A DNA stretch of 24,446 bases from an uncultured Phycisphaeraceae bacterium. GTDB taxonomy: Bacteria; Planctomycetota; Phycisphaerae; UBA1845. Positions 1,033 to 24,446 of the stretch are shown one piece after another. Each line of letters begins with the position of its first letter. Within the stretch, counting starts at the first letter, position 1. The notes beneath the pieces were generated by a model. It was not told the origin of the DNA. It saw nothing but the letters and a program-made list of their open reading frames with translations, and made no database searches. The stretch lies in contig CAZWWW010000003.1 in NCBI GenBank assembly GCA_964637715.1, positions 1-24,446 on the forward strand. Reading direction: 5' to 3'. The translations under genes and the position numbers were made by a program.

Positions 1033-1244
1033 AGTTCAGTGTTGCGTATTCACGATCGGTATTGGGTGGCGACCTCCACGGGTCCCGAGCCGGCCCGGTT
1101 GGCGTCGAACCCAAACTATTGTAACCTGCCCGCCCCGGCAAGCCGCCCGCGCCGCACGGAGCCGGCGGGGTTATGGCTTACGGTTGTTACGTTCAACACG
1201 GCACCCGGGTTCGCAGCGACCCGTGCAGAATACGCAGAGTCAGT

Positions 1245-3368
1245 ATGACCCCACACAACGCACCTGATGATCGTCGGGCACAGCACATAGCCGCGCTGGG
1301 GTTCCTTCTCCAGACGGTGGCGTTCGCCACGCTGGGGGGTATTGCGCTGTGGATGGAATCGTCAGCGGCCGGAGCCGTCACCCGGTTCGTGCTGGTGGGG
1401 CTGCCGGTGTGGGTCATCCTCTGGCTGGTGTTCAAGCAGATCCATCGCGTCCGAATCGAGCAACTCGAGACCAACGAAATCCGCCGCGCCCGCGCCGCCG
1501 GCGCGAGCGTCGCTATCTTTGATATGGACGATGAGGCCCTGCTCATCGAGCAGAACCGTCTGCGCTGGATCGTGCGCTGGCTACTCCCGGCGACAACGGT
1601 GGTCGTAGCGTTGCTCCTGCTGGGCGGGCAATTCGTTGGATGGGATTGGACGCTCGACGACGTGTTCAAACCAGCGCTCGAAGGCGGTCCTTCACCGACG
1701 AAAAACCCCATCATGATTATGTGGGTGGTTGTCGGCGTGGGGTTTGTCTGTTTTCTCTACGCCCGCTACACGATCGCACTGGCCAGATTGTCCGACTGGC
1801 GATTGCTTCACGCGGGCGCAGTGTTCATGTACGGCAACGCGTACGCCTGTTTGCTGCTCGCGATTTCCCTGATGGCTACGACGATCGACTGGTCGGAGCC
1901 GTTGCTGGCTTTGATCGTGCGCTGGGCGATGATTGTGCTGGGCGCCGAACTCGCGGTAAACTTCATTCTCGAGTTCTATCGACCGCGGGCGCCGGGGGTT
2001 GTGGCCAGGCCCTCGTTCGACAGCCGGTTGCTGAGTTTGCTCAGTGAACCCGGTGGTATCGCCAAGTCCATAGCCGAAACGGTTAACTATCAATTTGGAT
2101 TTGAGGTTTCGTCGACCTGGTTTTACCAGTTGCTCCAGCGCTGGTTGTTTCCCATTACGGTGGTCGCGGCGTTGATCGTCGTGGCCATGACCAGCGTGGT
2201 AATTGTCGATGCGGACGAACAGGCCGTCGTTGAGCGATTCGGTCGACCCGTCGGATCTGACGACGAATCGGTGCTTGGTCCCGGACTGCACATCAAGTGG
2301 CCCTATCCCATCGACGTGGTGCAGCGTGCGCCGGTACGAAGAATCAGCGAGGCGGTTATCGGCGAGGCGTCGGAGGACGAGGACGACAAACCGAACCAGG
2401 CCGTTTTATGGACGGAACCGCACGAGTATGTTCCCGAAATGATGCTGCTCGTGGCGGCCCCGAAATCAGCCGCGGAGTCAGCCTACGAAGCCAGCACCGG
2501 TGCACCGACTGAAGGCACCCGAAGTGTGGCGGTCAGCCTGCTCATGATCTCCGTGCCCATCGAATACCGCATCAAAGACGTGCGCCGGTATCTGTACAAC
2601 TATATTGAACCGGAAAAGCTGATCGAGAACGTGGCGTATCAATTCTTGTCCGACTATGCGGCGGGCGTGGATATCGATGAGTTCATCGGACCGGGTCGCG
2701 AGGCCATCAACGCCGAACTGAAAGAGGCGATCCAGCAACGCGTCGACGACCTTAAACTGGGCGTGGAGATCGTCTTTGTGGGGGTGCGTGGGGCCCACCC
2801 GCCCTCGAAAAACGGCGTTGCCGTTGCGTTTCAGAGTGCGGTTTCGGCGGAGACGAACATGGCCGCTACGATTAATACGGCCAACGGTGAAGCGCGGCGG
2901 ATTCTGACCAAGGTGGCGGGCACGGAGGGGCAGGCCCGCAATTTTGATGAAGCGATCCGCGTACGAAACCGGCTGCGCGCGCAAACGCCCGTTGATCCCG
3001 ATGCGTTGGCCGGTGCGGAACGACGTGTCGACCTTTTGTTGATGGGCGACGCGGACGAAGGTACCGAAGCGCTGAGCGGTGAGGTGGCGGCGATGATGGC
3101 CGATGCCCGCGCGATCGCAAGCGACCAGATCAGTCAGGCGTCGGCCAAGGTTCGCGCGTTTGCTACGGAAGTGGCAGCCTATGAGGCGGCCCCCACACTG
3201 TACAAGCAACGCAAGTCGTTCGAAGTGTACGAAGATATCGACGACGTGCGTAAGTATGTGATCGTTGGGGATACGTCCAACGTCATCCTTGAGTACATCG
3301 GTGTGGAGCAGGGCGGATTGGATCGGGTGCTCAGCGAGAATACGCAAAAGAAGGATACCGGTCACTGA
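1245..3368 (+). CDS. SPFH/band-7 (HflK-like) protein fused to a ~330-aa N-terminal polytopic membrane domain
   Basis: C-terminal half carries the HflK/HflC signature (VVIVDADEQAVVERFGRPV...GPGLHIKWPYPIDVV; ANGEARRILTKVAGTEGQARNFDEA coiled-coil tail). N-terminal half has about 6 predicted TM helices. The six-frame ORF begins at 1173 (ATG); the ATG at 1245 (MTPHNAP...) is the more plausible start, but this is uncertain. Confidence 0.75.
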   Translation: MTPHNAPDDRRAQHIAALGFLLQTVAFATLGGIALWMESSAAGAVTRFVLVGLPVWVILWLVFKQIHRVRIEQLETNEIRRARAAGASVAIFDMDDEALLIEQNRLRWIVRWLLPATTVVVALLLLGGQFVGWDWTLDDVFKPALEGGPSPTKNPIMIMWVVVGVGFVCFLYARYTIALARLSDWRLLHAGAVFMYGNAYACLLLAISLMATTIDWSEPLLALIVRWAMIVLGAELAVNFILEFYRPRAPGVVARPSFDSRLLSLLSEPGGIAKSIAETVNYQFGFEVSSTWFYQLLQRWLFPITVVAALIVVAMTSVVIVDADEQAVVERFGRPVGSDDESVLGPGLHIKWPYPIDVVQRAPVRRISEAVIGEASEDEDDKPNQAVLWTEPHEYVPEMMLLVAAPKSAAESAYEASTGAPTEGTRSVAVSLLMISVPIEYRIKDVRRYLYNYIEPEKLIENVAYQFLSDYAAGVDIDEFIGPGREAINAELKEAIQQRVDDLKLGVEIVFVGVRGAHPPSKNGVAVAFQSAVSAETNMAATINTANGEARRILTKVAGTEGQARNFDEAIRVRNRLRAQTPVDPDALAGAERRVDLLLMGDADEGTEALSGEVAAMMADARAIASDQISQASAKVRAFATEVAAYEAAPTLYKQRKSFEVYEDIDDVRKYVIVGDTSNVILEYIGVEQGGLDRVLSENTQKKDTGH

Positions 3369-3579
3369 TGTGGTGCGCTGCGTTGACGGATGCGTTGATC
3401 CGCGTGCCAAGGATGGGTCGCCACGGGTGCGTTCCCGCGGCGCATGACGGCGAGGCGTTTGACGGATGCAAGAGTCGATTCGGGAGGCGGTCTCGGTGTG
3501 CGGTCGTATCGGCGGGCTTCCCTGAGGCGTCGTGTGGGTACGGTTCGGTTTGTCGGTATCAGAGACGGAGTGTCATTGA

Positions 3580-4557
3580 ATGAAGAATATCGGCACCATC
3601 ATGGCGGCGATCGTCGTGGCGCTGGTGCTTGCCCTGTACATGTGCACCTTCAAGATTCGGTTTACGGAAGTGGCCATCGTCAAGACATGGGGTAAGCCCG
3701 CCAAGGAAGCGATTACCGAACCGGGCTTGAATTTCAAGTGGCCGCCGCCGATTCAAACGGTCGTGCTCTACGACAAACGTACCCGCGTGCTCGACGATCG
3801 TACGGAGGAAACGCGCACGATCGACGGCAAGAACGTCGTGGTGACCACGTTTACGCTGTGGCGCATCGCTGACCCGTCCAAGTTTCATACGAACTTTCCG
3901 AGCGGCGTGGAAGACGGCGAAAAGAAGTTGCGCACGGCGGTCATAACCCACAAGCACGCGGTCATGGGTCGTCATCGCTTTGGGGAAATCGTGTCCACCG
4001 ACCCCAAAGAGCGTAAGCTACGGGAGATCGAATCCGAAATCCGCAAGCAGATCGCCGACGATGTGTTGGACGCATACGGTATTGAAGTGCTCGGGTTCGG
4101 TATCAAGAAAATAGGGCTGCCCGAGGCCGTGACCACCTCCATCTTCGAGAGCATGAAGTCACATGAGCAGGCCAAGGCGGCGCGGTATCAGGCGGAGGGC
4201 GACGCCCGGGCAAACGACATTCTCGCCAACGCCAAGGCCGCGAAAGAACGGATTCTTTCAGCCGCCAACCAGAAAGTGGCGGACATCGAAGCCGAGGCCC
4301 AGCGCGTCGTCAGCAAGTACTACAAGGAATTCGATCAGCACCCGGAGCTCCGGATTTTTCTCGACGAATTGCGCACGACCGCTCGGGCCCTCCAGTCGCG
4401 CACGACGCTGGTGCTGCCCACCGCCGATCCGCCCTTCGACGTGTTTGATCAGGAGGCGCGGCGGCGGATTATCAGCGGCGATTCGATCGGCAACTCCGGT
4501 GCCGACAGTGGTGTACCCGTGACCGTTCGTGCGAAGCCGGAACCCGACGCAGACTGA
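3580..4557 (+). CDS. hflC: HflC-like SPFH/band-7 membrane protease modulator
   Basis: 325 aa. Single N-terminal TM helix (MKNIGTIMAAIVVALVLALYMCTF), then a motif closely matching HflC (KIRFTEVAIVKTWGKPAKEAITEPGLNFKWPPPIQTVVLYDKRTRVLD), then a C-terminal charged coiled-coil. GGAG 13 nt upstream of the ATG. Confidence 0.85.
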   Translation: MKNIGTIMAAIVVALVLALYMCTFKIRFTEVAIVKTWGKPAKEAITEPGLNFKWPPPIQTVVLYDKRTRVLDDRTEETRTIDGKNVVVTTFTLWRIADPSKFHTNFPSGVEDGEKKLRTAVITHKHAVMGRHRFGEIVSTDPKERKLREIESEIRKQIADDVLDAYGIEVLGFGIKKIGLPEAVTTSIFESMKSHEQAKAARYQAEGDARANDILANAKAAKERILSAANQKVADIEAEAQRVVSKYYKEFDQHPELRIFLDELRTTARALQSRTTLVLPTADPPFDVFDQEARRRIISGDSIGNSGADSGVPVTVRAKPEPDAD

Positions 4558-4562
4558 TCCCC

Positions 4563-5870
4563 ATGCACCAGCATAACAACCATTCACCCGCCCACGACGA
4601 CGACGACGCGCCGCCCGCGCTCAACGCGGTCGATGCCCCGCTCGACGCGGCCGGGCAATCACTGGCTGAGGCGCTGCGGGCGAGCTTCGGCATTCTGAAG
4701 ATCATCATGTTCGTGCTGTTCGTGCTGTACCTTTTTTCCAACGTGCGGCGCATCGAAAGTCACGAGCAGGCGATGACGCTACGGCTTGGGGCGCTACAAC
4801 CGGGGGTCAAAGAGGCGGGTCTGGTGTGGGCGTTCCCGTTTCCCATTGACGAAATCATCACCCTCCCCACCCGCAAGAGCAATGATCTTGTGATCGACAG
4901 CCAGACGTTCCACCGTCGCCCCAATGAGGTCGGACGGGACCTGAGCAGGATATCGCGCGGATCGTCACAGGGGCTCAACCCGGCGCTCGACGGCGCGCTG
5001 CTTACCGCCGATGCGGGTCTGGTGCATATCCGGTGGAAGGTCACCTACAAGATTGACGACGTCGCGAAATACATCACCAACATCTACGGTCGCCGGATCG
5101 AGGCGGCTGAGCAGCTTATTCAACGCACGGTGGAAAAGGCCGGCGTTCTCGTGGCCAGTGAACTCACCGCCGACGAAGTGATTCGCACACGCGTCGACTG
5201 GGTGCAGCGGGAGATGATCCGCCTGGTCAACCAGCAACTGACCGGGATAGATTCCGGGATCGTGGTAACCCGTGTTGAGATGAGTGAACGCACGGTGCCC
5301 ATTCCCGTGCGCGGGGCGTTCGACGGGACACAGGTCGCCGAAAATTTCAAGCAGAAGAGAATCCGGGACGCCGAGCAGGAGCGAACCAGAATCCTGAGCG
5401 AAGCGGCGGGTTCGTCCTATTCGGTATTGCTCAACGTGCTGGATAAGATCGATCGACGCAAAGCTGAGAGCGAGTCGGTGGATGATCTGCGAAAGCGACT
5501 CGATTGGCTGTTCGAGAACGATGCCGAGGGGGAAGCCGGTCGGCGCATCAAAAACGCAGGTACGTATCTTTCCCGCGTGGTCGGGCAGATTCAAAGCGAC
5601 GTGGAATTGTACCGTACGCTCCTGCCGGAGTTCGAGCGCAACCCCGCGTTGCTTGTAGCCCGGTTGTGGGAGAAAACGCGCGAGGAGATCTTCGACAACG
5701 ACGGCGTTACCAAGTTCTATAGGCCCGCCGGCGCGCAAATCCGTTTACACATTCCGCTTGACGCCGAGGAGCAGCGCCACGCCGAGGAACGAAGGTTGCA
5801 ATCCAAGGAGTTTGACGCCTCGAAACTTCGCCCCACGAAGTGGGTGCCCGTCGGACCGGAAGCCGAATAA
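4563..5870 (+). CDS. hflK: HflK-like SPFH/band-7 membrane protein
   Basis: 435 aa. Acidic disordered N-terminus, one TM helix (ILKIIMFVLFVLYLFSNV), then the HflK core motif (MTLRLGALQPGVKEAGLVWAFPFPIDEIITLP) and a long helical C-terminus. Starts 5 nt after the hflC-like stop. Confidence 0.8.
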   Translation: MHQHNNHSPAHDDDDAPPALNAVDAPLDAAGQSLAEALRASFGILKIIMFVLFVLYLFSNVRRIESHEQAMTLRLGALQPGVKEAGLVWAFPFPIDEIITLPTRKSNDLVIDSQTFHRRPNEVGRDLSRISRGSSQGLNPALDGALLTADAGLVHIRWKVTYKIDDVAKYITNIYGRRIEAAEQLIQRTVEKAGVLVASELTADEVIRTRVDWVQREMIRLVNQQLTGIDSGIVVTRVEMSERTVPIPVRGAFDGTQVAENFKQKRIRDAEQERTRILSEAAGSSYSVLLNVLDKIDRRKAESESVDDLRKRLDWLFENDAEGEAGRRIKNAGTYLSRVVGQIQSDVELYRTLLPEFERNPALLVARLWEKTREEIFDNDGVTKFYRPAGAQIRLHIPLDAEEQRHAEERRLQSKEFDASKLRPTKWVPVGPEAE

Positions 5871-10915: not shown

Positions 10916-12049
10916 TTATCCACAAGGACCCTCATTCGTCGCAACGGGCAGGGGGATGCCGGCGCCGTAGGTACGATCGGGCGGGGTGGGCTCAAACACG
11001 CCCGGTATGATCGTACCGCAATGGGGACAGGTCGAATCCTTCATGGCATTGTGTTCCACAAAGAACCCCCGACGTTTGATAAGCACCGCATCACACGATG
11101 GGCAGTGTGTGCTCTCTCTCGACCCGACGCCACCCGGCAGGTTTCCGGGATAAACAAAGCGCAGACCGGCTGAGCGACCGATCTCATAAGCGCGCAACAA
11201 GGTCTCCGGCGGCGTGCGCGGCGGGTCGGTCATTTTGTAGTCGGGATGAAAGGCCGTTACGTGCCACGGAATGTCATAAGATACACCCGCCAGAAACTCG
11301 GCGATGTCGCGCAATTCCTCGTCGCTGTCGTTAAAACCGGGTATGACGAGTGTGACGATTTCGACCCAAAAGCCCATCTGCTTCACGCGCCAAATCGTAT
11401 CGAGGACGTTCTGTAGTATCCCGCCGAGTTCACGATAGCGCTTGTCGCGAAAGCTCTTGAGGTCGATTTTGTACAGATCCACGTAGGGGCGGATGAACTC
11501 GAGGACCTGCGGTGTGGCGTTGCCGTTGCTGACGAATCCGCAGATAATGCCCTGCTGTTTGGCGCGTTTGAAGATTTCGACGGCCCAGTCGGCGGTGATG
11601 AGCGGTTCGTTGTAGGTGCTGACCATCACGGGCGTTTTGTAGCGGACAGCCATCTCGACCAGCCGGTCGGGCGTCAGGAAGTTGGGTCGGGAGACGGCTT
11701 TGTCGTCGCGCAGCGCCTGGCTAGTGACCCAGTTCTGGCAGTAGCCGCAGTGCAGGTCACATCCCAGCATCCCGAACGAAAGGGCGTCGCGCGCCGGGAA
11801 TGCGTGATAGAAGGGTTTCTTTTCGATGGGGTCTATCTGCAAACCGGCGACGTACCCCGCTGGAGCCCGCAGTTCGCCGCCGCTGTTGAACCGAACCCGG
11901 CAAACCCCGCCTCGTCCGGGCAGGATCGTGCAGCGGTGCCCGCACGCCAAGCACCGTACGCGACCGTCCCGCCCACGCACCACGAGCTGTGGCGCGGACG
12001 CCATCGTGTTGTCGAAAAGCAATTCTTTGAGTTGAACGGACCCAGGCAT
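10916..12049 (-). CDS. amrS: AmmeMemoRadiSam-system radical SAM enzyme (AmrS-like)
   Basis: N-terminal Cys cluster VRCLACGHRCTILPGRGGVCRVR, then IDPIEKKPFYHAFP, radical SAM motif CDLHCGYCQNW, and C-terminal zinc-ribbon-like THCPSCDAV...STCPHCGTIIPG. All of these match my recollection of the TIGR04337 family. The ORF extends to a TTG at 12076; the ATG at 12049 has a GGAG 8 nt upstream; homology would also allow the ATG at 12004. Confidence 0.8.
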   Translation of the reverse strand: MPGSVQLKELLFDNTMASAPQLVVRGRDGRVRCLACGHRCTILPGRGGVCRVRFNSGGELRAPAGYVAGLQIDPIEKKPFYHAFPARDALSFGMLGCDLHCGYCQNWVTSQALRDDKAVSRPNFLTPDRLVEMAVRYKTPVMVSTYNEPLITADWAVEIFKRAKQQGIICGFVSNGNATPQVLEFIRPYVDLYKIDLKSFRDKRYRELGGILQNVLDTIWRVKQMGFWVEIVTLVIPGFNDSDEELRDIAEFLAGVSYDIPWHVTAFHPDYKMTDPPRTPPETLLRAYEIGRSAGLRFVYPGNLPGGVGSRESTHCPSCDAVLIKRRGFFVEHNAMKDSTCPHCGTIIPGVFEPTPPDRTYGAGIPLPVATNEGPCG

Positions 12050-12167
12050 CGAGCGATCTCCGAAGGGACAAGACAACAGCGTTCTAATCTCTATTATACA
12101 TCAGGCGAGGGAATGGTCAGCCGTACCTTGAAACGGTCGGCCCCGTCTCGCTACCGAGGAGCCGACA

Positions 12168-13052
12168 TTGTCTCACAATCAGCACGACCACGAGCCGCAC
12201 GCGGGCGACGATCACCAACAGGACGAGCACAACGCGTGCCACGACGACCCGGTAATGCGTCGGGCCGACCCCGCACGCGGCGGCGTCCATCAGTCGACGC
12301 GCCCCTCGGCCCTTGTGGTGGAGCTTCGGGCTCATGTGCCGTTTTCGGTCACGGCTGTCGCCATCGGATTGATCGTCGCCGGCGCGATCTGCATTATCGG
12401 GTTGTCCGGTACGCGCGGTGCGGGTTGGAACGAGGGCGTTAGCCCGGCCCATGGGCGTTCGGTCGGCACATCGCCGGTCACGAGCGAGGGCCACGACCAC
12501 GTTGACGACCGCGACGAAGCACATTCCCCCGCGCGTCTGTTCTTTCATCTCTTCCACCCGGCGCACATGCTGTTCTCCGCCACGGCGACGGCGGCCATGT
12601 TTTTTCGCTATGATCGCCGCCGGCTCAAGGCCATTATCATCGGGCTGATCGGGGCGGTCGGCGTGTGCGGCGTGAGCGATGTGGTCATGCCGCAGATTTC
12701 GCTCATGATCCTTGGAATTCATGCGCCGTGGCACATTTGTGTGTGGGAACATCCGGGGCTGGTCTTGCCGTTTGCTTTTGTCGGTGTGCTCGTGGGGATC
12801 AGTGCATCGGCCAGCGTGATGCACGGCACCATCGTGTCCCACTCGCTGCACGTCTTCGCCTCGACGATGGCCAGTATCTTCTATATGGTTGAGCCGCTCG
12901 GCGGTACGGCGTGGATCGACATCATCGGCAAGATGTTCATCTTTATCGTTCTGGCGGTCATGGTCCCCTGTTGCTTGAGCGACATTGTCTTCCCCATGCT
13001 CATGACCCGCGCGGGGCGGGACGAGTTCGAGAGAGAACCCCACGCCCATTAG
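12168..13052 (+). CDS. His-rich polytopic membrane protein (putative metal-ion binding/transport)
   Basis: TTG start preceded by GAGGAG (6-nt spacer). N-terminal ~40 aa are very His/Asp-rich (HNQHDHEPHAGDDHQQDEHNACHDD). ≥5 hydrophobic helices with intramembrane His (HLFHPAHMLF, APWHICVWEHPG, MHGTIVSHSLHVF). The overlapping 310-aa antisense ORF (12117..13049) has R/D/H-rich junk composition and is rejected. Confidence 0.55.
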   Translation: MSHNQHDHEPHAGDDHQQDEHNACHDDPVMRRADPARGGVHQSTRPSALVVELRAHVPFSVTAVAIGLIVAGAICIIGLSGTRGAGWNEGVSPAHGRSVGTSPVTSEGHDHVDDRDEAHSPARLFFHLFHPAHMLFSATATAAMFFRYDRRRLKAIIIGLIGAVGVCGVSDVVMPQISLMILGIHAPWHICVWEHPGLVLPFAFVGVLVGISASASVMHGTIVSHSLHVFASTMASIFYMVEPLGGTAWIDIIGKMFIFIVLAVMVPCCLSDIVFPMLMTRAGRDEFEREPHAH

Positions 13053-14249: not shown

Positions 14250-14866
14250 GCCGCCGCGCTTTCTTGAAGGATGTAGCGGGAGCGGATCAAGTATTGAATC
14301 ATGGACAGGGCGGTCACAATGACCGTCGCCCACGCCAGGGTCGATTTGATCCAACCCCCGACACCGCCGAACGCCCCCGCCTGTTCCCGCGCGATAATGA
14401 ACAGAATCACCGGAACCGCGATGCTTTGCATCCACATCTTCAACTTGCCGTGGATCGACGCGCCGAACCGTTTACCCATTGATTCGTTGAATCCGCGCAG
14501 CCCGGTGACCAGCAATTCGCGCACCACAATCACCACGGCCATCCACGCATGGACACCCGTGACGTTGTGCCCGCTTTCATCAACGAACCCCGAGCCGACG
14601 AACAACACGAACGCCCCGCAAACGAGCACTTTATCGACCAGCGGATCCAGCACGCGCCCCAGCGGCGTAATCAGACCATATTTCCGTGCGATATAGCCAT
14701 CGAGAAAATCGGTGGCGGCGGCGATCACGAACAAAACCCACGCGGCGTCGAGCTTCCACGTCTCCGGGGCGCGTTGTACGTACTGAGACAGCAGCGCGAC
14801 AAAGATGATGGCCAGTACGAGCCGGGCCAGCGTGATCCGATTGGGTAGATTCAGTGAATGCCTCAT
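14246..14866 (-). CDS. pgsA: CDP-diacylglycerol--glycerol-3-phosphate 3-phosphatidyltransferase (CDP-alcohol phosphatidyltransferase family)
   Basis: CDP-OH phosphatidyltransferase signature DFLDGYIARKYGLITPLGRVLDPLVDKVLV. N-terminus LPNRITLARLVL. The ATG at 14866 overlaps the rimO stop. The ORF is open to 14935. Confidence 0.85.
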   Translation of the reverse strand: MRHSLNLPNRITLARLVLAIIFVALLSQYVQRAPETWKLDAAWVLFVIAAATDFLDGYIARKYGLITPLGRVLDPLVDKVLVCGAFVLFVGSGFVDESGHNVTGVHAWMAVVIVVRELLVTGLRGFNESMGKRFGASIHGKLKMWMQSIAVPVILFIIAREQAGAFGGVGGWIKSTLAWATVIVTALSMIQYLIRSRYILQESAAA

Positions 14867-16311
14867 GCACTCAACACGGACAAGGAAACCTGTGTGGGAT
14901 GGGCGACGAGGTCGTATCCGTCGCGCCCGGTGCACCGAACGTGTACCATCGTACCGGGCGCCGCGATGCAGTTCGTCACCCGCGTCACACCATCGACGAA
15001 GGGCGCCTGACCTTCATGCCGCGCTTGAACGGTTCGGCCACTCACCCGCTCATCCACCAGCACGTCAAACGTCGAACCCACGCGCTGATCCGCCAGGGCG
15101 AATGCGACGTCCTGCTGAGTGGCCATCAACGCGTCGACGCGCTCACTCTTGATCTTTTCGGGAATCTGTTCCTTCATCCGACCGGCGGGCGTATCAGGCT
15201 CCAACGAGTAGGGAAACACGCCGAGGGCATCGAAACCGAAGTCGCGCACGAAGGTGACAAGCTCATTGAATTCTGCGTCGGTTTCGCCTGGGAAGCCCGC
15301 GATCATCGTCGTGCGAACGGTGACGCCGGGGATGCGCTCGCGGATACGTTCGAGCAATCGTTCGGTGGATGCGCGATCGATACGCCGGTGCATGGCTTTG
15401 AGCACGCGGTCATTGATGTGTTGCAGCGGGATATCGATGTAGTTGCACACGTGCTCGGATTCGGCGATCGCATCGAGAATCTCATCCGACAGGACAGACG
15501 GGTAGACGTACATAAGTCTTACCCAGCGCAATCCGTCCACCCTGTCGAGTTGGCGAAGCAATCCGGCGAGACCATCGCCGATTTGGTCTTCCCCCAGGCC
15601 ATAGCTGGTGGTGTCTTGCCCGATCAAGCTGATTTCCACGGCGCCGTCGGACACCAACTCGCGGGCTTCGTGGAGCACAATCTCCGGCGGTTTGCAATGC
15701 ATACGCCCGCGGATGGCGGGGATCGTGCAAAAGGTACATTTCTGGTCGCACCCTTCGCTGATGCGCAGATAGGCATAGTGTCTGGGCGTCAGGCGAAGGC
15801 GGGCTGTATCGAGCTGTACGAACGGATGATAGTCCGACAGAAAGACATCCGCCTTGCGCCGTGTCGCGTTTCCACGAGCCCCGCGCTTCAATCCGCGCGA
15901 TTTCTTTACGTTCGGGCTTGTCCCGTCTACTGATACGGCGCCGTCGGGTTGACCAAGCACGGCGCGAACAATGTCATCACGGTTGTTCACCCCGACCAGC
16001 GCGTCGATACCAGTGATACGCTCGAGTATCGTTTCCTTGTCGCGTTGAACAAGGCAGCCGGCTACGACCACGCGCCGGGTACGACCGCGTTTTTTACGTC
16101 GCGTTGCGTCGCGGATCACGTCATCCGCCTCGACGCGCGACGCATCGAGAAACCCGCAGGTGTTGATGACGATCACGTCGGCGTCGTCTTCCCCGCAGAT
16201 GGCGCACCCCGCCTCGGCCAACTGCCCGAGCATCTTCTCGGAGTCGACGAGGTTCTTCGCGCATCCCAATGAGACGAACGCGACCCGCGTTAGTTCCTTG
16301 TTTCCCTGCAT
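14863..16311 (-). CDS. rimO: Ribosomal protein S12 methylthiotransferase RimO (MiaB-like radical SAM MTTase)
   Basis: MTTase N-domain (VAFVSLGCAKNLVDSE...VIVINTCGF), radical SAM CDQKCTFCTIP, and a C-terminal TRAM-like domain. Contains a basic insert (SPNVKKSRGLKRGARGNATRRKAD) relative to typical RimO. Confidence 0.9.
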   Translation of the reverse strand: MQGNKELTRVAFVSLGCAKNLVDSEKMLGQLAEAGCAICGEDDADVIVINTCGFLDASRVEADDVIRDATRRKKRGRTRRVVVAGCLVQRDKETILERITGIDALVGVNNRDDIVRAVLGQPDGAVSVDGTSPNVKKSRGLKRGARGNATRRKADVFLSDYHPFVQLDTARLRLTPRHYAYLRISEGCDQKCTFCTIPAIRGRMHCKPPEIVLHEARELVSDGAVEISLIGQDTTSYGLGEDQIGDGLAGLLRQLDRVDGLRWVRLMYVYPSVLSDEILDAIAESEHVCNYIDIPLQHINDRVLKAMHRRIDRASTERLLERIRERIPGVTVRTTMIAGFPGETDAEFNELVTFVRDFGFDALGVFPYSLEPDTPAGRMKEQIPEKIKSERVDALMATQQDVAFALADQRVGSTFDVLVDERVSGRTVQARHEGQAPFVDGVTRVTNCIAAPGTMVHVRCTGRDGYDLVAHPTQVSLSVLSA

Positions 16312-19405: not shown

Positions 19406-19629
19406 GCGTTAACGCACAGATTGTGTAGCGGCTGATCGCCCTCAACCTCCCCTTCGTGAAGGGTAGCGCGTGGGTCGGATCGTTACATGAAAACCGACTG
19501 TCCTGTGGCGTACAGCGGACGTGGGCGTTTGTCGGCTCATTGTTTGACAGGCAGCGCGCGGTATCCTGTTTCGCTTGTCGAATGAGGGTCGTCGAACCGC
19601 GAGGGGGCATAGGCGTAACGACAGCGATC

Positions 19630-20274
19630 ATGGATATCGATCTATCACCGGAACATCTCCTGTCCGCTTATGTATCCGGTGTGTTCCCGATGGCTGACGA
19701 TGAGGATGTCGTACGCTGGTTCGCCCCTGATCCACGGGCGATTATCGAACTCGACGCGTTCACCATGTCGCGCTCGCTTCGCGCGGTGGTGCGTCGCGGT
19801 ATCTTTGAGATTACCGTGAACCGCGCGTTCGAAGAGGTGATCGCCGCGTGCGCGGATCGACCCGACGGCACCTGGATTTCCGCGGAGATCGCAGACGCCT
19901 ATGTTCAACTGCACCGGCTCGGGTTCGCGCACAGTGTCGAGGCGCGGTGTGAGGGGAAACTGGTCGGCGGGTTGTATGGTGTGGCCATCGGGGCGGCGTT
20001 CTTCGGCGAGTCGATGTTTCACCGGGTGACGGACGCCTCCAAAGTCGCCCTTGCGGCGCTGGTGGGGCGCCTGCGAGATCGCGGCTTCAACTTGCTGGAC
20101 ATACAATTCATCACCGATCATCTGCGGCGGTTCGGCGCTGTGGAGATTCCCCGGTCCGACTACTTGCGGCGACTCCATCGTGCGGTTCAAGTATCTTGTG
20201 CATTCGACGACCGGATTGGTCCCACGGCGATTTCGGTTCAAAATGAACGTGACGACGCGACGACGTCTGATTAG
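19630..20274 (+). CDS. aat: Leucyl/phenylalanyl-tRNA--protein transferase
   Basis: Strong match to Aat along the whole length (LLSAYVSGVFPMADDEDVVRWFAPDPRAI...GKLVGGLYGVAIGAAFFGESMFHRVTDASKVAL). The six-frame ORF extends upstream to 19456 through repeat 1b. The ATG at 19630 (MDIDLSPEHLL) fits the family N-terminus. Confidence 0.88.
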   Translation: MDIDLSPEHLLSAYVSGVFPMADDEDVVRWFAPDPRAIIELDAFTMSRSLRAVVRRGIFEITVNRAFEEVIAACADRPDGTWISAEIADAYVQLHRLGFAHSVEARCEGKLVGGLYGVAIGAAFFGESMFHRVTDASKVALAALVGRLRDRGFNLLDIQFITDHLRRFGAVEIPRSDYLRRLHRAVQVSCAFDDRIGPTAISVQNERDDATTSD

Positions 20275-20282
20275 AGCGTTTA

Positions 20283-20392
20283 TCGTTTTCATGGGCCGGT
20301 TCTAGGACACGCGCACCGGCCTCGAGACCGGGAAGATCGCGCGGGCTGAAGCCCGCGGCTCGGAGCACAAAAACGGGAAATGCTCTAGAACA
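20283..20392 (-). repeat. ~110-nt structured repeat, copy 2a (family 2); inverted partner at 24247..24357
   Basis: The reverse complement of 24247-24357 aligns with 20283-20392: a shared TCGTTTTCATG end, a TCGAGACCGG block, and a near-identical hairpin CGCGGGCT-GAA-GCCCGCGGCTCGGA(G/A)CACAAAAACGG. Spurious ORFs 20111..20518(-) and 24066..24446(+) translate to related peptides, which confirms the repeat. Confidence 0.7.
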
Positions 20393-20441
20393 CGCACCAT
20401 CGGCATCGGACCGGGGCGTTGACCGGGAGGGTGTCGGTGTC

Positions 20442-22541
20442 ATGGGGTTGGCAGCCGGTGCGCAAGAGGGTTTGTCTGTAGTGCGGAAATCCACAAAACC
20501 ATCCCCCGTGGTTTTCACGGAGCAGCGACCGATGGATCAACCGGTGCGCGCTACGTCCGCCCAAGACGCAGAACACGCGTACACGGTCGCCGCATCGCCA
20601 GGCGCATCATCGTCACCTTTGCTCGTTGATCGGTCCGTACCGCCGGCTGGAAACGACCTGTTCCTGCGCAACATGCGTGCGCTGTGGCGGGTTGATCCGT
20701 GGTTGGCCCTGCGCGTCGACGCGGTTCGCGATGAGGATCGCCGGCCTGTGGAACCGGCGAAAAAAGGGGGATGGACGGTTCGGGCGGCGGTTCCCGACGG
20801 ACCCTCGCTGTACCTGCACAGCCGCTACGACCCGGTTGCCGAGGCACGCACCTTCGCCGAAGCAGTCACCATCGAAGACAAGTTCTGCTTCGTGGTGTCG
20901 GGGCTGGGTTTGGGTTATCACATATTGGCCTTGCACGAGCGATTGACCGGCGATGTGATTATCGTATGCGTTGAGCCCTCCATCCGTATGATCGCTACGG
21001 CGCTGACGCGCGTCGATCTCTCCGAGCTCATCGCGTCGCGTCGGTTTATTCTGCTCACCGACGATGACAAGGCCCGCCTGCATGACCGCCTTCAGGCGTA
21101 CAACACGCTCATTATGCTCGGGGCACAGTTTATCCAGCATGCGCCGTCGGTTCGGTTGGCCGCGTCCGAGCACGCCGCCGTGTCCCATGCGATCAGCGAA
21201 TTCGTCACCTACACGCGCATGACGCTCATGACCCTGGTGGCCAATTCGCAGATTACCTGCAAGAACATCGCCATGAACGCGGTAACCTATGTCTCGACCC
21301 CGCCGATCGACTTGCTGCGCAACCGTTTCTCCGGGGACCCGGCCATCATTGTCTCCGCCGGACCGTCGCTGCTCAAGAACATCGACCAACTCAAGGGACT
21401 GAAGGGGCGGGCGGTGTTGATCGCGGTTCAGACCGCGCTGCGACCGTTGATGCAGCGCGGGATCGTGCCGGACTTCGTGACCAGCCTCGACTTTCACGAA
21501 ATGTCGCGCAAGTTCTTCGAGGGCGTCGGTGACTTGTCGGACGTACATCTCGTCGCTGAACCCAAAGCGACTTGGCACGTGTTAGACAACTACCCCGGTC
21601 CGATCTCGCTGCTCGAGAACAGTTGGGCGCGGATGGTGCTGGGCGATGATCTCGCCGCCCGCGGCGGGCTCAAAGCCGGGGCGACCGTCGCGCACCTAGC
21701 GTTCTACCTGGCTGTTCATCTGGGGTGCGATCCGATCGTATTCGTCGGACAGGATCTTGCGTTTACCGGACATGTGTTCTACGTGCCCGGCGTGGAGATT
21801 CACCACGCCTGGCGCACGGAACTCAATCGGTTCAACACGATCGAACACAAGGAATGGGAACGCATCGTACGGAACCGGCCGATCCTGCGCAAGGTGAGCG
21901 ACGCCCAAGGCCGGAGTTTGTATACGGACGAACTGCTCTTTACCTATCTGGAGCAGTTCGAGACGGACGTCGCCGAGCTGCCCAATCGCGTGGTTGACGC
22001 TACGGAGGGTGGCGCGTGCATCCGCGGCACGGAAGCGATGAGTCTCGATCGCGTGGCGGCAGAGATATGCACGCGCGACATCGATCCGGAGCGCTTCGCC
22101 TACCGCCGTACGATGACCCGGCGGAACCCCGCCCGACTTCCCGCGGTGCGCGACGTGCTGACGCGCCGCATCGAACAACTGGACCGCGTGGTGACCACCT
22201 GCGATGAACTGCTGGAGGTGTTGGGCGAACTCGAAGGGCTGGCGGACGACGCGGATCGATTCAACAAACGCCTTTTGCGCGTGGATGAGCTTCGTGCGCG
22301 CATCGACAACGAACGCGACGCCTATCGCATCGTGAACGTCGCCACCCAACTGGCCGAGTTTCGGCGATTCTCAGCCGATAGGCGTCTGAGTACGACGACT
22401 CTGGACGACGCCGAGCGGGCGCGGCGGCAGATCAAACGAGACGTAGAGTTCATCACCGCGGTGCGCGACGGGGCGCTGACCGTCAAACCCATGCTCACTG
22501 CCTCCTGCGACCGCGTGGAGAAAGCGATCGAACGCTCATGA
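20442..22541 (+). CDS. DUF115 (MptE-like) / motility-accessory-factor (Maf)-like putative nonulosonic-acid glycosyltransferase
   Basis: 699 aa. N-terminal LFLRNMRALWRVDPWLALRV resembles the Maf N-terminus. Central IIVSAGPSLLKNIDQLKGLKGRAVLIAVQTALRPLMQRGIVPDFVTSLDFHE and FVGQDLAFTG match DUF115 core motifs as I recall them. GGGAGGG ~11 nt upstream of the ATG. Alternative start at the ATG at 20532. Confidence 0.65.
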   Translation: MGLAAGAQEGLSVVRKSTKPSPVVFTEQRPMDQPVRATSAQDAEHAYTVAASPGASSSPLLVDRSVPPAGNDLFLRNMRALWRVDPWLALRVDAVRDEDRRPVEPAKKGGWTVRAAVPDGPSLYLHSRYDPVAEARTFAEAVTIEDKFCFVVSGLGLGYHILALHERLTGDVIIVCVEPSIRMIATALTRVDLSELIASRRFILLTDDDKARLHDRLQAYNTLIMLGAQFIQHAPSVRLAASEHAAVSHAISEFVTYTRMTLMTLVANSQITCKNIAMNAVTYVSTPPIDLLRNRFSGDPAIIVSAGPSLLKNIDQLKGLKGRAVLIAVQTALRPLMQRGIVPDFVTSLDFHEMSRKFFEGVGDLSDVHLVAEPKATWHVLDNYPGPISLLENSWARMVLGDDLAARGGLKAGATVAHLAFYLAVHLGCDPIVFVGQDLAFTGHVFYVPGVEIHHAWRTELNRFNTIEHKEWERIVRNRPILRKVSDAQGRSLYTDELLFTYLEQFETDVAELPNRVVDATEGGACIRGTEAMSLDRVAAEICTRDIDPERFAYRRTMTRRNPARLPAVRDVLTRRIEQLDRVVTTCDELLEVLGELEGLADDADRFNKRLLRVDELRARIDNERDAYRIVNVATQLAEFRRFSADRRLSTTTLDDAERARRQIKRDVEFITAVRDGALTVKPMLTASCDRVEKAIERS

Positions 22542-24190
22542 GCGTTTCGGCTGTCATTCCCGCTGATCTTGACACCACGCCGCTGGGCACACGCAGTCGC
22601 CTGGCGGACGAGCTGTGCGGCGTGCCGGTGCTGCGCCGTACGGTTCAGCGCGTAACGCGGTGTGAGCAGATCGATGCCGTTATCGTGACCTGCCCGCCCG
22701 CTCAGCATGGGCGCTGCGCCGCGCTGCTCGCCGGACTACCGGTGCGCGTTCAGGCGGTCGACGCCGAAACGCCTCCGTGGCGCACCCTGGTTACTTCGGC
22801 CAGAAAATGGGCGCTGGATGGATGGCGCGGCGGTATCGGTGGAACGACCTGCTTCGACGAGTATGTGGACGCCCGGGTGCTGGCGGGGTTGCTTGGGGAG
22901 ATCGATGCCCGGGCGTTGTTCGTTGTCGCTCCCGGCGCGGTCGTGTTCGATTCCGATCTGGCGGACCGCATGATCGCCCACGGCCTGTCGACGCGTGAGG
23001 AGAGCAAACTCACCTTCGCCCAGACACCGCCGGGGTTGTCCGGGTTGCTGCTCAATGACGACATCGTCCGAGAGTTGGCCGAGCAATCCATTCCCATCGG
23101 CTGGGTGTTCAGCTATAAGCCTGACAGCCCCTTGAAGGACCTCGCGTTTCAGCCGTGCTGTTTCGAGGTCCCCCCGGAAGTTCGCTACGCCACGGGTCGG
23201 TTGATCGCCGATACCGACCGCACCGTAGCCCGACTGAAACGGTTGCTGAGCGCCTACAGCGACCCGGACGCCCGCACGACAGGTCGCTGGCTCATCGAGC
23301 GGGACGAAACGCACGTTGACGCACTGCCGCGCGAGATCGAACTGGAGCTAACCACCGACGACCCTTATCCCGAGAGCGTTCTTCGACCGCGCGGACCGAG
23401 ACTGGATCGATCAGGCCAAGCAGACGTTGAACTCGTCGAGCGGGTGATCGACGACTGGTGCCGGTTTGACGACACGTTGCTTGTTTTGGGCGGGTTCGGC
23501 GATCCGCTGCGGCATCCGGCCTTTGACCGTATTCTGGCCCTGGCGTCTCGCGGACTAAGCGATGGGACGCGGGGTTTGTGCGTGCGTACAACGGCGGTCG
23601 ATCTCGACGAGACGTGCATCGACACGATCATCGAACACCCGTTTGACGTGCTCAGTGTTGCGCTTGACGCCTGGACCGCTGAGCGCTATGCGTCGCTTCA
23701 GTCACCCGGCGCTACGGACCGATCCTTACTCGATGCCGTCGTCGGCCACCTTGATCGCTTGGCCGAACGGCGCATCGCACACCGCCACGTAACGCCCATT
23801 GTCGTGCCGGAGTTTACCAAAGCCGAACAAAACGTTGACGAGCTGGACGCGTTTCACGACGGGTGGCTCCGCAAGGTCGGTGCAGTCTGCATCACCGGTG
23901 CTGGTCATTACGCCGGACAATGTCCGAACCATGCCGTGATGAACATGGCTCCGCCTGCGCGAACGCCGTGTCGTCGGATCGTGTCGCGTTGCATGGTCCT
24001 CTGCGACGGGCGCGTCGTCGCCTGCGATCAGGACTTTCGTGGCTTGCACCCCCTTGGGAACTTGAATGAGCAACCACTTGAAACGATCTGGTCCGGTGAA
24101 TCGTTCATGCGAATGCGTAGCGCTCACCAAGCCCTGGATCTCAGCCCTTTTCCGTTGTGCGGTGCGTGCGACGAATGGCATAGACCGTAG
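22538..24190 (+). CDS. Fusion protein: N-terminal cytidylyltransferase-like (CMP-sugar synthetase fold) + radical-SAM-like half-barrel lacking CX3CX2C + SPASM/twitch-like Cys-rich C-terminus
   Basis: ATGA overlap with the upstream gene. N-terminus AVIPADLDTTPLGTRSRLADELCGVPVLRRTVQRV...IDAVIVTCP resembles KdsB/NeuA/SpsF-type nucleotidyltransferases. Mid-region LVLGGFGDPLRHPAFDRILAL resembles the radical SAM GGEPLLhP motif, but there is no CxxxCxxC anywhere. C-terminus CRRIVSRCMVLCDGRVVACDQ...PLCGACDEWH is SPASM-like. Confidence 0.6.
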   Translation: MSVSAVIPADLDTTPLGTRSRLADELCGVPVLRRTVQRVTRCEQIDAVIVTCPPAQHGRCAALLAGLPVRVQAVDAETPPWRTLVTSARKWALDGWRGGIGGTTCFDEYVDARVLAGLLGEIDARALFVVAPGAVVFDSDLADRMIAHGLSTREESKLTFAQTPPGLSGLLLNDDIVRELAEQSIPIGWVFSYKPDSPLKDLAFQPCCFEVPPEVRYATGRLIADTDRTVARLKRLLSAYSDPDARTTGRWLIERDETHVDALPREIELELTTDDPYPESVLRPRGPRLDRSGQADVELVERVIDDWCRFDDTLLVLGGFGDPLRHPAFDRILALASRGLSDGTRGLCVRTTAVDLDETCIDTIIEHPFDVLSVALDAWTAERYASLQSPGATDRSLLDAVVGHLDRLAERRIAHRHVTPIVVPEFTKAEQNVDELDAFHDGWLRKVGAVCITGAGHYAGQCPNHAVMNMAPPARTPCRRIVSRCMVLCDGRVVACDQDFRGLHPLGNLNEQPLETIWSGESFMRMRSAHQALDLSPFPLCGACDEWHRP

Positions 24191-24246
24191 GCACGCATGG
24201 CGACCACCGGACCGTCGCTTCCTCAATCAAGTGTTGACCGGCAGAA

Positions 24247-24357
24247 TACCTAACGCAGGTTCCGTTTTTGTGTTCCGAGCCGCGGGCTTGAGCCCGCGCG
24301 ATCGTACCGGTCTCGATGGCGGTTCAACCGCCAAAGACCCGGCACATGAAAACGAAA
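24247..24357 (+). repeat. ~110-nt structured repeat, copy 2b (family 2), inverted relative to 20283..20392
   Basis: See copy 2a. Hairpin CGCGGGCT-TGA-GCCCGCG. Begins ~57 nt after the stop of the 22538..24190 gene. Confidence 0.7.
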
Positions 24358-24389
24358 AACGCTCGCCATGCCGCAAGAACGGACCCGAT

Positions 24390-24446
24390 TGTCTACAGCA
24401 ATATCCGTTATTGTGTATCGCCGTATCGAGTCGATTCTCCGGATGA
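24390..24446. repeat. Inverted partial copy of the right end of the 13085..13345 element (family 3), truncated by the window end
   Basis: The reverse complement of 24390-24446 is TCATCCGGAGAATCGACTCGATACGGCGATACACAATAACGGATATTGCTGTAG. This matches 13289-13343 with one mismatch. It likely continues beyond the window. Confidence 0.65.

Follow-up and report, generated by a model that had tools for sequence, protein, structure and literature searches.

The window analyzed here is a stretch of 24,446 nucleotides from an uncultured Phycisphaeraceae bacterium of the Planctomycetota (GenBank assembly GCA_964637715.1, contig CAZWWW010000003.1, positions 1 to 24,446 of the forward strand). Toward its end lies a pair of overlapping genes, the first encoding a glycosyltransferase of the motility-associated factor (Maf) type and the second a protein of 550 amino acids (aa) in which a nucleotidyltransferase-like domain is followed by a barrel of the radical S-adenosylmethionine (SAM) type and an iron-sulfur (Fe-S) cysteine domain (Table 1). 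The second gene begins with an ATG that overlaps the stop codon of the Maf-type gene in the tetranucleotide ATGA at positions 22538 to 22541, and it ends with a stop codon at 24188 to 24190. It is a real gene, since 457 homologs are present in the database and an exhaustive profile search with the protein returned 551 clusters (50% identity) at E values of at most 1e-30; the best 120 homologs are full length, are 48 to 65% identical, and come from Planctomycetota/Phycisphaerae assemblies.

An original prediction, made from the sequence alone, had described the protein as a cytidylyltransferase fused to a radical-SAM-like domain with SPASM-like cysteines. The three-part anatomy is right, because profile searches and two fold searches agree on it. 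At the C terminus, Pfam SPASM (PF13186) matches residues 478 to 545 above its gathering score (E value of 2.5e-11; 44.1 bits, cutoff 21.5), and the TIGR04085 SPASM profile gives 14.9 bits against a cutoff of 27. Pfam Radical_SAM (PF04055) reaches residues 291 to 429 at 20.4 bits, under its gathering score of 29.5, and this match spans profile positions 24 to 157 only, skipping the part of the profile that holds the cysteine motif. For the N-terminal half, the Pfam scan of the protein gave no match to CTP_transf_3 (PF02348) and a trace of IspD (PF01128; 12.5 bits, cutoff 27), and a few homologs have weak matches to PF12804. The top NCBIfam match is to TIGR04321, "spiro-SPASM protein," and covers residues 220 to 548 only (E value of 1.7e-32; 112.8 bits, cutoff 250). 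A partial (beta/alpha)6 triosephosphate isomerase (TIM) barrel core, as in the radical SAM superfamily, is present, as is a nucleotide-diphospho-sugar transferase fold of the cytidine monophosphate (CMP)-sugar synthetase type in the N-terminal domain. When an AlphaFold2 model made with 20 homologs as input (predicted local distance difference test [pLDDT] score, 85.4; predicted template modeling score, 0.87) was searched against the PDB with Foldseek, BtrN came first (E value of 5e-10; target-normalized template modeling score of 0.71), followed for the C-terminal half by sactisynthases, SuiB, SkfB, DesII, and anSME; the N-terminal half matched KpsU, KdsB, and IspD.

Table 1. Coordinates of the gene pair and of the parts of the 550-aa protein in the window
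Feature	Residues	Positions	Strand	Basis or remark
Maf-type (MptE-like/PseD-like) glycosyltransferase gene, upstream		20442..22541	+	Pfam, NCBIfam, PDB sequence and fold
Whole gene of the nucleotidyltransferase-like/pseudo-radical-SAM/Twitch protein	550 aa	22538..24190	+	Open reading frame list, full-length homologs, AlphaFold2 model
Cytidylyltransferase-like (SpsF/CTP_transf_3-type) domain without the canonical Arg/Lys signature	1-262	22538..23323	+	
Insertion RKW..WRGG..(F/Y)DE	89-108	22802..22861	+	Most conserved element of the N-terminal domain; marks the Maf-linked clade
Radical-SAM-type partial TIM barrel without SAM-cluster cysteines	263-470	23324..23947	+	
Loop after strand beta-1, at the site of CX3CX2C (ELTTDDPYPESVLRPRG)	270-286	23345..23395	+	Alignment with motif-bearing relatives
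GGFGDP, counterpart of the radical-SAM "GGE" motif	318-323	23489..23506	+	Motif search, conservation
Twitch-type (truncated SPASM) Fe-S domain, predicted	471-550	23948..24187	+	Pfam SPASM, BtrN alignment, conservation
Conserved candidate ligand C478	478	23969-23971	+	
Conserved candidate ligand C496	496	24023-24025	+	
Conserved candidate ligand C541	541	24158-24160	+	
Conserved candidate ligand C544	544	24167-24169	+	

Low confidence in the model (pLDDT below 50) is confined to loops at residues 98 to 101, 197 to 203, 472 to 475, and 547 to 550, and these coincide with family-invariant residues (WRGG, D201, R475, and W547/H548). Invariant loops that are modeled with low confidence would fit a pattern typical of substrate-binding loops, which become ordered upon ligand binding. 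Other residues counted as invariant are D107/E108, R221/D225, E270, and D499.

The missing SAM-cluster motif and the C-terminal cysteines

The cysteines of the protein lie at residues 27, 42, 52, 60, 105, 207, 208, 308, 348, 360, 451, 462, 478, 485, 489, 496, 541, and 544. As had been predicted, none of them forms a CxxxCxxC motif, and the motif is also missing from all six frames of positions 22400 to 24300; therefore, no frameshift, which the prediction had named as a possible source of error, conceals it. The loop at its site aligns column by column with CPLHCVWC, CKMQCSFC, and CPHACSYC of relatives that bear the motif, and the positions of the three SAM-cluster cysteines are taken by D, P/E, and R/L. 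Most relatives share this condition: among the 243 family sequences in hand, which were used for all counts of cysteine status, the three cysteines are all missing from 229, a single one is left in 4, and the full set is present in 10; the residues at these positions are mostly D, A, and R. Among close homologs the loop is the best conserved stretch, with 14 of 25 columns at 90% or more, and beyond the close clade it is variable, with 1 of 25 columns at that level. Within the GGFGDP motif, G321 is present in all of the 123 full-length representatives from which residue conservation was counted and D/E322 is present in 122. Because the three cysteines for the SAM-cleaving [4Fe-4S] cluster are gone, the protein is predicted to lack the capacity to cleave SAM and thus to carry out radical SAM chemistry.

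Noncanonical cluster motifs do occur in the radical SAM superfamily, as in ThiC and Dph2, and with the GGFGDP motif and the barrel fold both kept it could be argued that the protein remains a radical SAM enzyme that relies on unusual ligands or on a cluster provided in trans. We regard this as extremely improbable. There is no cysteine in or near the loop, and none is conserved elsewhere in the barrel, where C308, C348, and C360 vary among homologs; moreover, the three positions are filled mostly by residues of other kinds, and repeated loss with intermediate stages is a sign of dispensability rather than relocation.

The history of the motif can be read from the members of the clade marked by the WRGG insertion in the N-terminal domain. 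At the site of DDPYPESVLR, a canonical motif is found in P0164 (CPLHCVWC), P0270, P0272, and P0173 (CKMQCSFC), all of which belong to this clade, and in a rough neighbor-joining tree rooted with spiro-SPASM proteins the motif-intact members stand near the base. One degenerate member, P0271 (TTRSRLQAAWS), nests among motif-intact relatives (TTQCPLHCVWC), and P0153, P0177, and P0178 have partial motifs left. This nesting and the partial motifs show that loss of the SAM cluster occurred more than once in a protein that itself persisted.

The barrel itself is not in decay and remains under selection, because conservation is equal across the three domains of the family and, in close homologs, is highest in the replacement loop. 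Since D312, G321, H326, T351, D377, W443, and R475 are invariant in motif-intact and degenerate members alike, persistence of the ancestral ligand pocket is suggested. The same conservation could instead mean that the protein is a neofunctionalized enzyme whose barrel has gained a nonradical site, of an acid/base or SAM-binding kind, that modifies a nonulosonate or its CMP derivative before transfer by Maf. Such an enzyme would explain why polar residues lining the barrel are near-invariant (E270, in 121 of 123, as well as D312, T351, K428, and D441) and why the loop ELTTDDPYP..LRPRG is so well conserved in close homologs, and the closest folds include BtrN, DesII, and BlsE, radical SAM enzymes that act on sugars or nucleosides. 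However, many of these residues are equally invariant in the motif-bearing relatives and may represent ancestral substrate binding, and the loop varies beyond the close clade, unlike a shared catalytic loop. We therefore consider a new catalytic site unlikely.

Toward the C terminus, the array of six cysteines in the original prediction is present as described (C478-x6-C485-x3-C489-x6-C496 ... C541-x2-C544), but it is conserved only in part. C478, C496, C541, and C544 are each kept in 120 to 122 of the 123 representatives, and all four are found in 238 of the 243 family sequences, whereas the position of C485 is usually M or L and that of C489 is usually A or S. C485 and C489 were considered as a second cluster site and rejected, as neither is conserved beyond close relatives. 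In a profile search of PDB sequences, the four conserved residues aligned with C169, C187, C232, and C235 of BtrN, which we take to be the ligands of its single auxiliary cluster. The SPASM pattern for two auxiliary clusters comprises seven cysteines, CX9-15GX4C ... CX2CX5CX3C ... C; its first half-motif is present in the window's protein (C478-x12-G491-x4-C496), and its second half, CX2CX5CX3C, is reduced to C541-x2-C544, six residues short of the C terminus. Because only four cysteines are conserved and the second half-motif is cut to CX2C, the domain is predicted to be a one-cluster Twitch domain and not a two-cluster SPASM domain, so that of the SPASM/twitch resemblance claimed earlier the Twitch part stands. 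Alignment and conservation fit the BtrN type of Twitch domain, in which four cysteines on a beta-hairpin and a C-terminal CX2C fully ligate one auxiliary [4Fe-4S] cluster. With the Pfam matches, the BtrN alignment, and the two fold searches bearing out a radical-SAM-like half with an Fe-S cysteine domain, the most plausible of the roles first proposed for it is that it binds an auxiliary cluster only or serves as a structural partner.

The N-terminal nucleotidyltransferase-like domain

The N-terminal domain resembles cytidylyltransferases in overall sequence, with a 94% probability in hhalign against the canonical CTP_transf_3 proteins encoded beside relatives, but its active-site signature has been replaced. 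The canonical signature ARGGSK..PxKN (or QARMGSTRLPGK, in the type of PDB entry 6oew) reads PADLDTTPLGTRSRLADEL in this domain; opposite its Arg and Lys stand D12 and R21 or, in the SpsF register, D24/E25. Most members of the family have D or E at the Arg position, and the Lys position is, depending on the register, R21 (59 of 123) or the acidic D24/E25. The RLxxDT motif at the C-terminal end of the domain is kept (R221, D225, and T226). The most conserved element is the 20-residue WRGG insertion, in which W96, R97, and G98 are kept in 118 to 122 of the 123 representatives and D107 in 118; it has no counterpart in the alignment with CTP_transf_3 or in true spiro-SPASM proteins, and it includes the residues with low pLDDT at 98 to 101.

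A separate canonical CTP_transf_3 gene lies one or two genes away in the loci of motif-bearing relatives and of true spiro-SPASM proteins; 6oew itself is a homolog (E value of 1.6e-20) of the stand-alone cytidylyltransferase encoded two genes past true spiro-SPASM genes. As a separate canonical enzyme is encoded alongside and the Arg/Lys signature has been replaced, we infer that binding of a nucleotide or nucleotide sugar is a likelier task for the fused domain than CMP-sugar synthesis for the pathway. The original prediction had taken the protein to be a CMP-sugar synthetase, and a version of that proposal, in which an active N-terminal domain supplies the CMP-linked donor for Maf and the Fe-S domain is a redox or structural appendage, can draw on the retained RLxxDT motif, on the need of Maf for a CMP-sugar, and on the fact that most planctomycetal loci show no separate CTP_transf_3 gene nearby. 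It is nevertheless very unlikely: family members mostly have acidic or varying residues where the signature Arg and Lys belong, every Pfam cytidylyltransferase model stays below its threshold, and the loci of ancestral type have their own canonical enzyme.

Linkage to Maf and the flagellin islands of relatives

The main functional clue, which is absent from the original prediction, is the tight coupling of the gene to the Maf-type gene upstream. The product of the latter matches Pfam MptE-like (PF01973; E value of 9.5e-41), the NCBIfam flagellin modification protein PseD (NF050051) over about 530 residues (E value of 1e-26; 93.8 bits, cutoff 670), and the Maf structure 5mu5 in the PDB, both by sequence and in a full-length Foldseek alignment (E value of 4.6e-19; 709 columns). 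The next fold match, an archaeal pterin kinase, has an E value of 5e-5, and NCBI labels the homologs [quoted passage not shown] The longest open reading frame, from position 20442, encodes 699 aa, and the database gene call starts at 20532 and encodes 669 aa. Alignments with homologs begin only at about residue 60, and in the model of the 669-aa version pLDDT stays below 50 over the first 39 residues; translation probably starts downstream of 20442.

The linkage is conserved. In a genome scan with two clade-specific peptide patterns, which returned Planctomycetota only and does not extend to the spread of the family elsewhere, 73 of 80 loci from GTDB Planctomycetota had a Maf-like gene directly upstream of the gene for the family member, at identities down to 34%. 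One metagenomic protein of 1,233 aa (P0259) is a natural fusion of Maf_flag10_N, MptE-like, and family-member domains. In this fusion the radical-SAM cysteines and all four Twitch cysteines are gone, which suggests that the Fe-S cluster became dispensable in at least one lineage once the two proteins were covalently joined.

In the window, as in most planctomycetal loci, the neighbors of the gene pair are of housekeeping type (Aat, HAD, glycine cleavage, and DNA ligase). Synteny is conserved here: in 31 of the 80 loci (within L002 to L066) the gene that directly precedes the Maf gene is aat, for the Leu/Phe-tRNA protein transferase, and in 14 loci it follows a HAD hydrolase gene; in the window, aat is at positions 19456 to 20274. 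The locus of one motif-bearing relative (L088) is organized as a flagellin island, with the order flagellin, FlaG, FliD, FliS, a DUF8042/TP0873_N protein, Maf, and the family member, after which come CTP_transf_3, NeuB, Epimerase_2, a methyltransferase, an acetyltransferase, a PseB-like protein, and DegT. The loci of two others (L084 and L085) have a similar gene order. Among the 80 planctomycetal loci, FliD and FliS genes beside a degenerate family member were seen in a single case (L020). In the loci of true spiro-SPASM proteins there are genes for CTP_transf_3, a methyltransferase, an ATP-grasp enzyme, and FlaA.

The housekeeping neighbors in the window and in most of the 80 loci, with FliD and FliS at L020 only, could be taken to mean that the Maf-like protein and its pseudo-radical-SAM partner modify some target other than flagellin in Phycisphaerae, for example another surface protein, or that they are no glycosylation system at all; the MptE-like domain occurs in a pterin kinase as well. 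We think this quite unlikely, as the upstream protein fits Maf over its full length and does so far better than it fits the kinase, the PseD match extends across 530 of its residues, and near-basal relatives are found inside flagellin islands.

We consider it moderately likely that the protein encoded in the window is a nonradical, Fe-S-containing accessory subunit of Maf, probably acting in flagellin glycosylation. It belongs to a large and mostly planctomycetal clade descended from radical SAM enzymes with the domains of spiro-SPASM proteins (SpsF-like nucleotidyltransferase, barrel, and one-cluster Twitch). The genes of these ancestors would have stood in flagellin-glycosylation islands, with the Maf gene on one side and that of the CMP-nonulosonate synthetase on the other, and the enzymes presumably performed a radical step on a CMP-activated nonulosonic acid. 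In the lineage of the window, the three SAM-cluster cysteines have been lost and, it is predicted, radical SAM chemistry with them, while the barrel pocket, the four Twitch cysteines (probably holding one structural or redox [4Fe-4S] cluster), the clade-specific WRGG loop, and the translational coupling to Maf have been kept. The ligand of the protein may be the cytidine-nucleotide sugar donor, the acceptor, or both; together with Maf the protein could form a two-component transferase that O-glycosylates flagellin. The domain identities, the recurrent motif loss, the conserved cysteines, and the gene coupling and fusion with Maf are shown here, and complex formation, the ligand, the Fe-S content, and the flagellin target are what we infer.

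Several observations weigh against this proposal. The Maf-fused protein does without the Twitch cysteines, which shows that at least one member can dispense with the cluster; the retained RLxxDT motif makes residual nucleotidyl-transfer activity possible; and the conserved polar residues of the barrel and the replacement loop fit a new catalytic site equally well. Most loci, including that in the window, have housekeeping flanks with no flagellar or nonulosonate genes near, and the flagellin target is extrapolated from few loci.

An accessory subunit of Maf could be part of a broader arrangement, which we offer tentatively and regard as rather doubtful in its full extent. Maf proteins of the Planctomycetota, and in another form those of spirochetes, would be obligate two-component enzymes whose second subunit is a pseudoenzyme derived from a radical SAM enzyme, with a nucleotidyltransferase-like domain and a cluster-less barrel that hold the CMP-nonulosonate donor; through the Twitch [4Fe-4S] cluster, flagellin glycosylation would respond to redox state or iron, and the motif-bearing relatives would carry out a previously unknown radical step in making nonulosonic-acid glycans. 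The family forms a natural series of pseudoenzymes, with intact, partly decayed, and fully cluster-less barrels that all have the predicted Twitch cluster, and it lets one ask what role a radical-SAM fold and its auxiliary cluster play after radical chemistry is lost. If the reading is right, the motif-bearing relatives, whose genes in flagellin islands have Maf on one side and the CMP-sugar synthetase on the other, hint at a possible radical SAM step in the biosynthesis of nonulosonic-acid glycans.

A distinct fusion was found in another NeuB cluster (locus L086). The protein P0284, encoded at positions 2195 to 3901 of that locus, joins a canonical CTP_transf_3 domain to an intact radical-SAM domain and a SPASM domain, and its neighbors are a second radical SAM/SPASM gene, a stand-alone CTP_transf_3 gene, and NeuB. 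Joining of a cytidylyltransferase to a radical-SAM domain in nonulosonate clusters arose more than once.

Elsewhere in the window, positions 10916 to 12076 of the reverse strand encode a radical SAM enzyme of the AmmeMemoRadiSam system (TIGR04337; 276 bits, cutoff 220) that is unrelated to the gene pair, and the adjoining reading frame of 310 aa (12117 to 13049, reverse strand) has no Pfam or NCBIfam match. The third radical SAM gene of the window, at 14863 to 16311 on the reverse strand, encodes a MiaB-like methylthiotransferase. On the forward strand, between 1173 and 10722, three SPFH/Band-7 paralogs in series (1173 to 3368, 3580 to 4557, and 4563 to 5870) come before genes for an ABC ATPase, an ABC-2 permease, and a protein of 659 aa without a family match. 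A promoter and terminator scan of positions 20200 to 24446 gave nothing beyond shuffled expectation.

Comparison with known systems

The original prediction had called the architecture undescribed. The same layout is already catalogued as the uncharacterized family TIGR04321, spiro-SPASM, after which the Joint Genome Institute names some homologs, and the window's protein is thus not a new kind of protein. The true members of that family (P0275, P0279, P0280, and P0281) share its domain order and length class and its four C-terminal cysteines, C-x17-C ... C-x2-C. They differ from it in keeping the SAM-cluster motif, as CPHACSYC or CPQNCVYC, and in lacking the WRGG insertion, and they score 555 to 567 bits against the family profile, to which the window's relatives align over positions 77 to 506. 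Their genes are linked to a CTP_transf_3 gene and to the flagellar gene FlaA, and in the loci retrieved there is no adjoining Maf gene, unlike in the window. The window's protein belongs to a sister clade of these proteins, marked by the WRGG insertion. Despite the family name, P0275, P0280, and P0281 have four C-terminal cysteines only (e.g., C426, C444, C485, and C488) and resemble Twitch proteins with one cluster, not SPASM proteins with two.

BtrN (PDB 4m7s and 4m7t), a Twitch radical SAM dehydrogenase that acts on a free aminocyclitol, has the CX3CX2C motif and no N-terminal nucleotidyltransferase domain. The SpsF/CTP_transf_3 enzymes, including Leptospira 6oew and the synthetases of CMP-pseudaminic acid (CMP-Pse), CMP-N-acetylneuraminic acid (CMP-NeuAc), and CMP-3-deoxy-D-manno-octulosonic acid (CMP-Kdo), differ from the window's protein in that it has the signature Arg/Lys replaced and the 20-residue WRGG insertion added. 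By its name, the NCBIfam "pseudo-SAM/SPASM protein" TIGR04347 is another pseudo-radical-SAM family; it matches relatives weakly and has no significant match to the protein itself. Literature searches for spiro-SPASM/TIGR04321, for SPASM together with motility accessory factor, and for DUF115 in spirochetes returned nothing relevant, and full-text searches turned up no published account of a radical SAM step in flagellin glycosylation or in nonulosonic or pseudaminic acid glycans. The large SAM-cluster-less clade, its obligate pairing with Maf, and the implied radical step in flagellin nonulosonate glycosylation therefore appear to be undescribed in the searchable literature.

The 202-aa TP0873_N/DUF8042 protein encoded between FliS and Maf in the islands of two motif-bearing relatives (3751 to 4359 in L084; 5340 to 5948 in L088) may be a helical specificity factor of Maf similar to GlfM, and the name TP0873_N, which comes from a Treponema pallidum protein, is a further link to spirochetes. 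No TP0873_N/DUF8042 gene lies upstream of Maf in the window.

GlfM is a cis-encoded specificity factor of Maf-2 that is needed for flagellin glycosylation, in a field where the choice of donor and acceptor by Maf is unclear and missing components are suspected (bioRxiv 10.1101/2023.12.03.569772). It is a small protein, a predicted four-helix bundle without homology to the window's protein, so the likeness is one of role only; as the product of a gene adjoining Maf, it is a precedent for multicomponent Maf systems, by analogy with which a role for the window's protein is proposed. If that proposal is true, this conserved, translationally coupled, and sometimes fused partner would be a concrete candidate for the missing Maf component in a large bacterial group.

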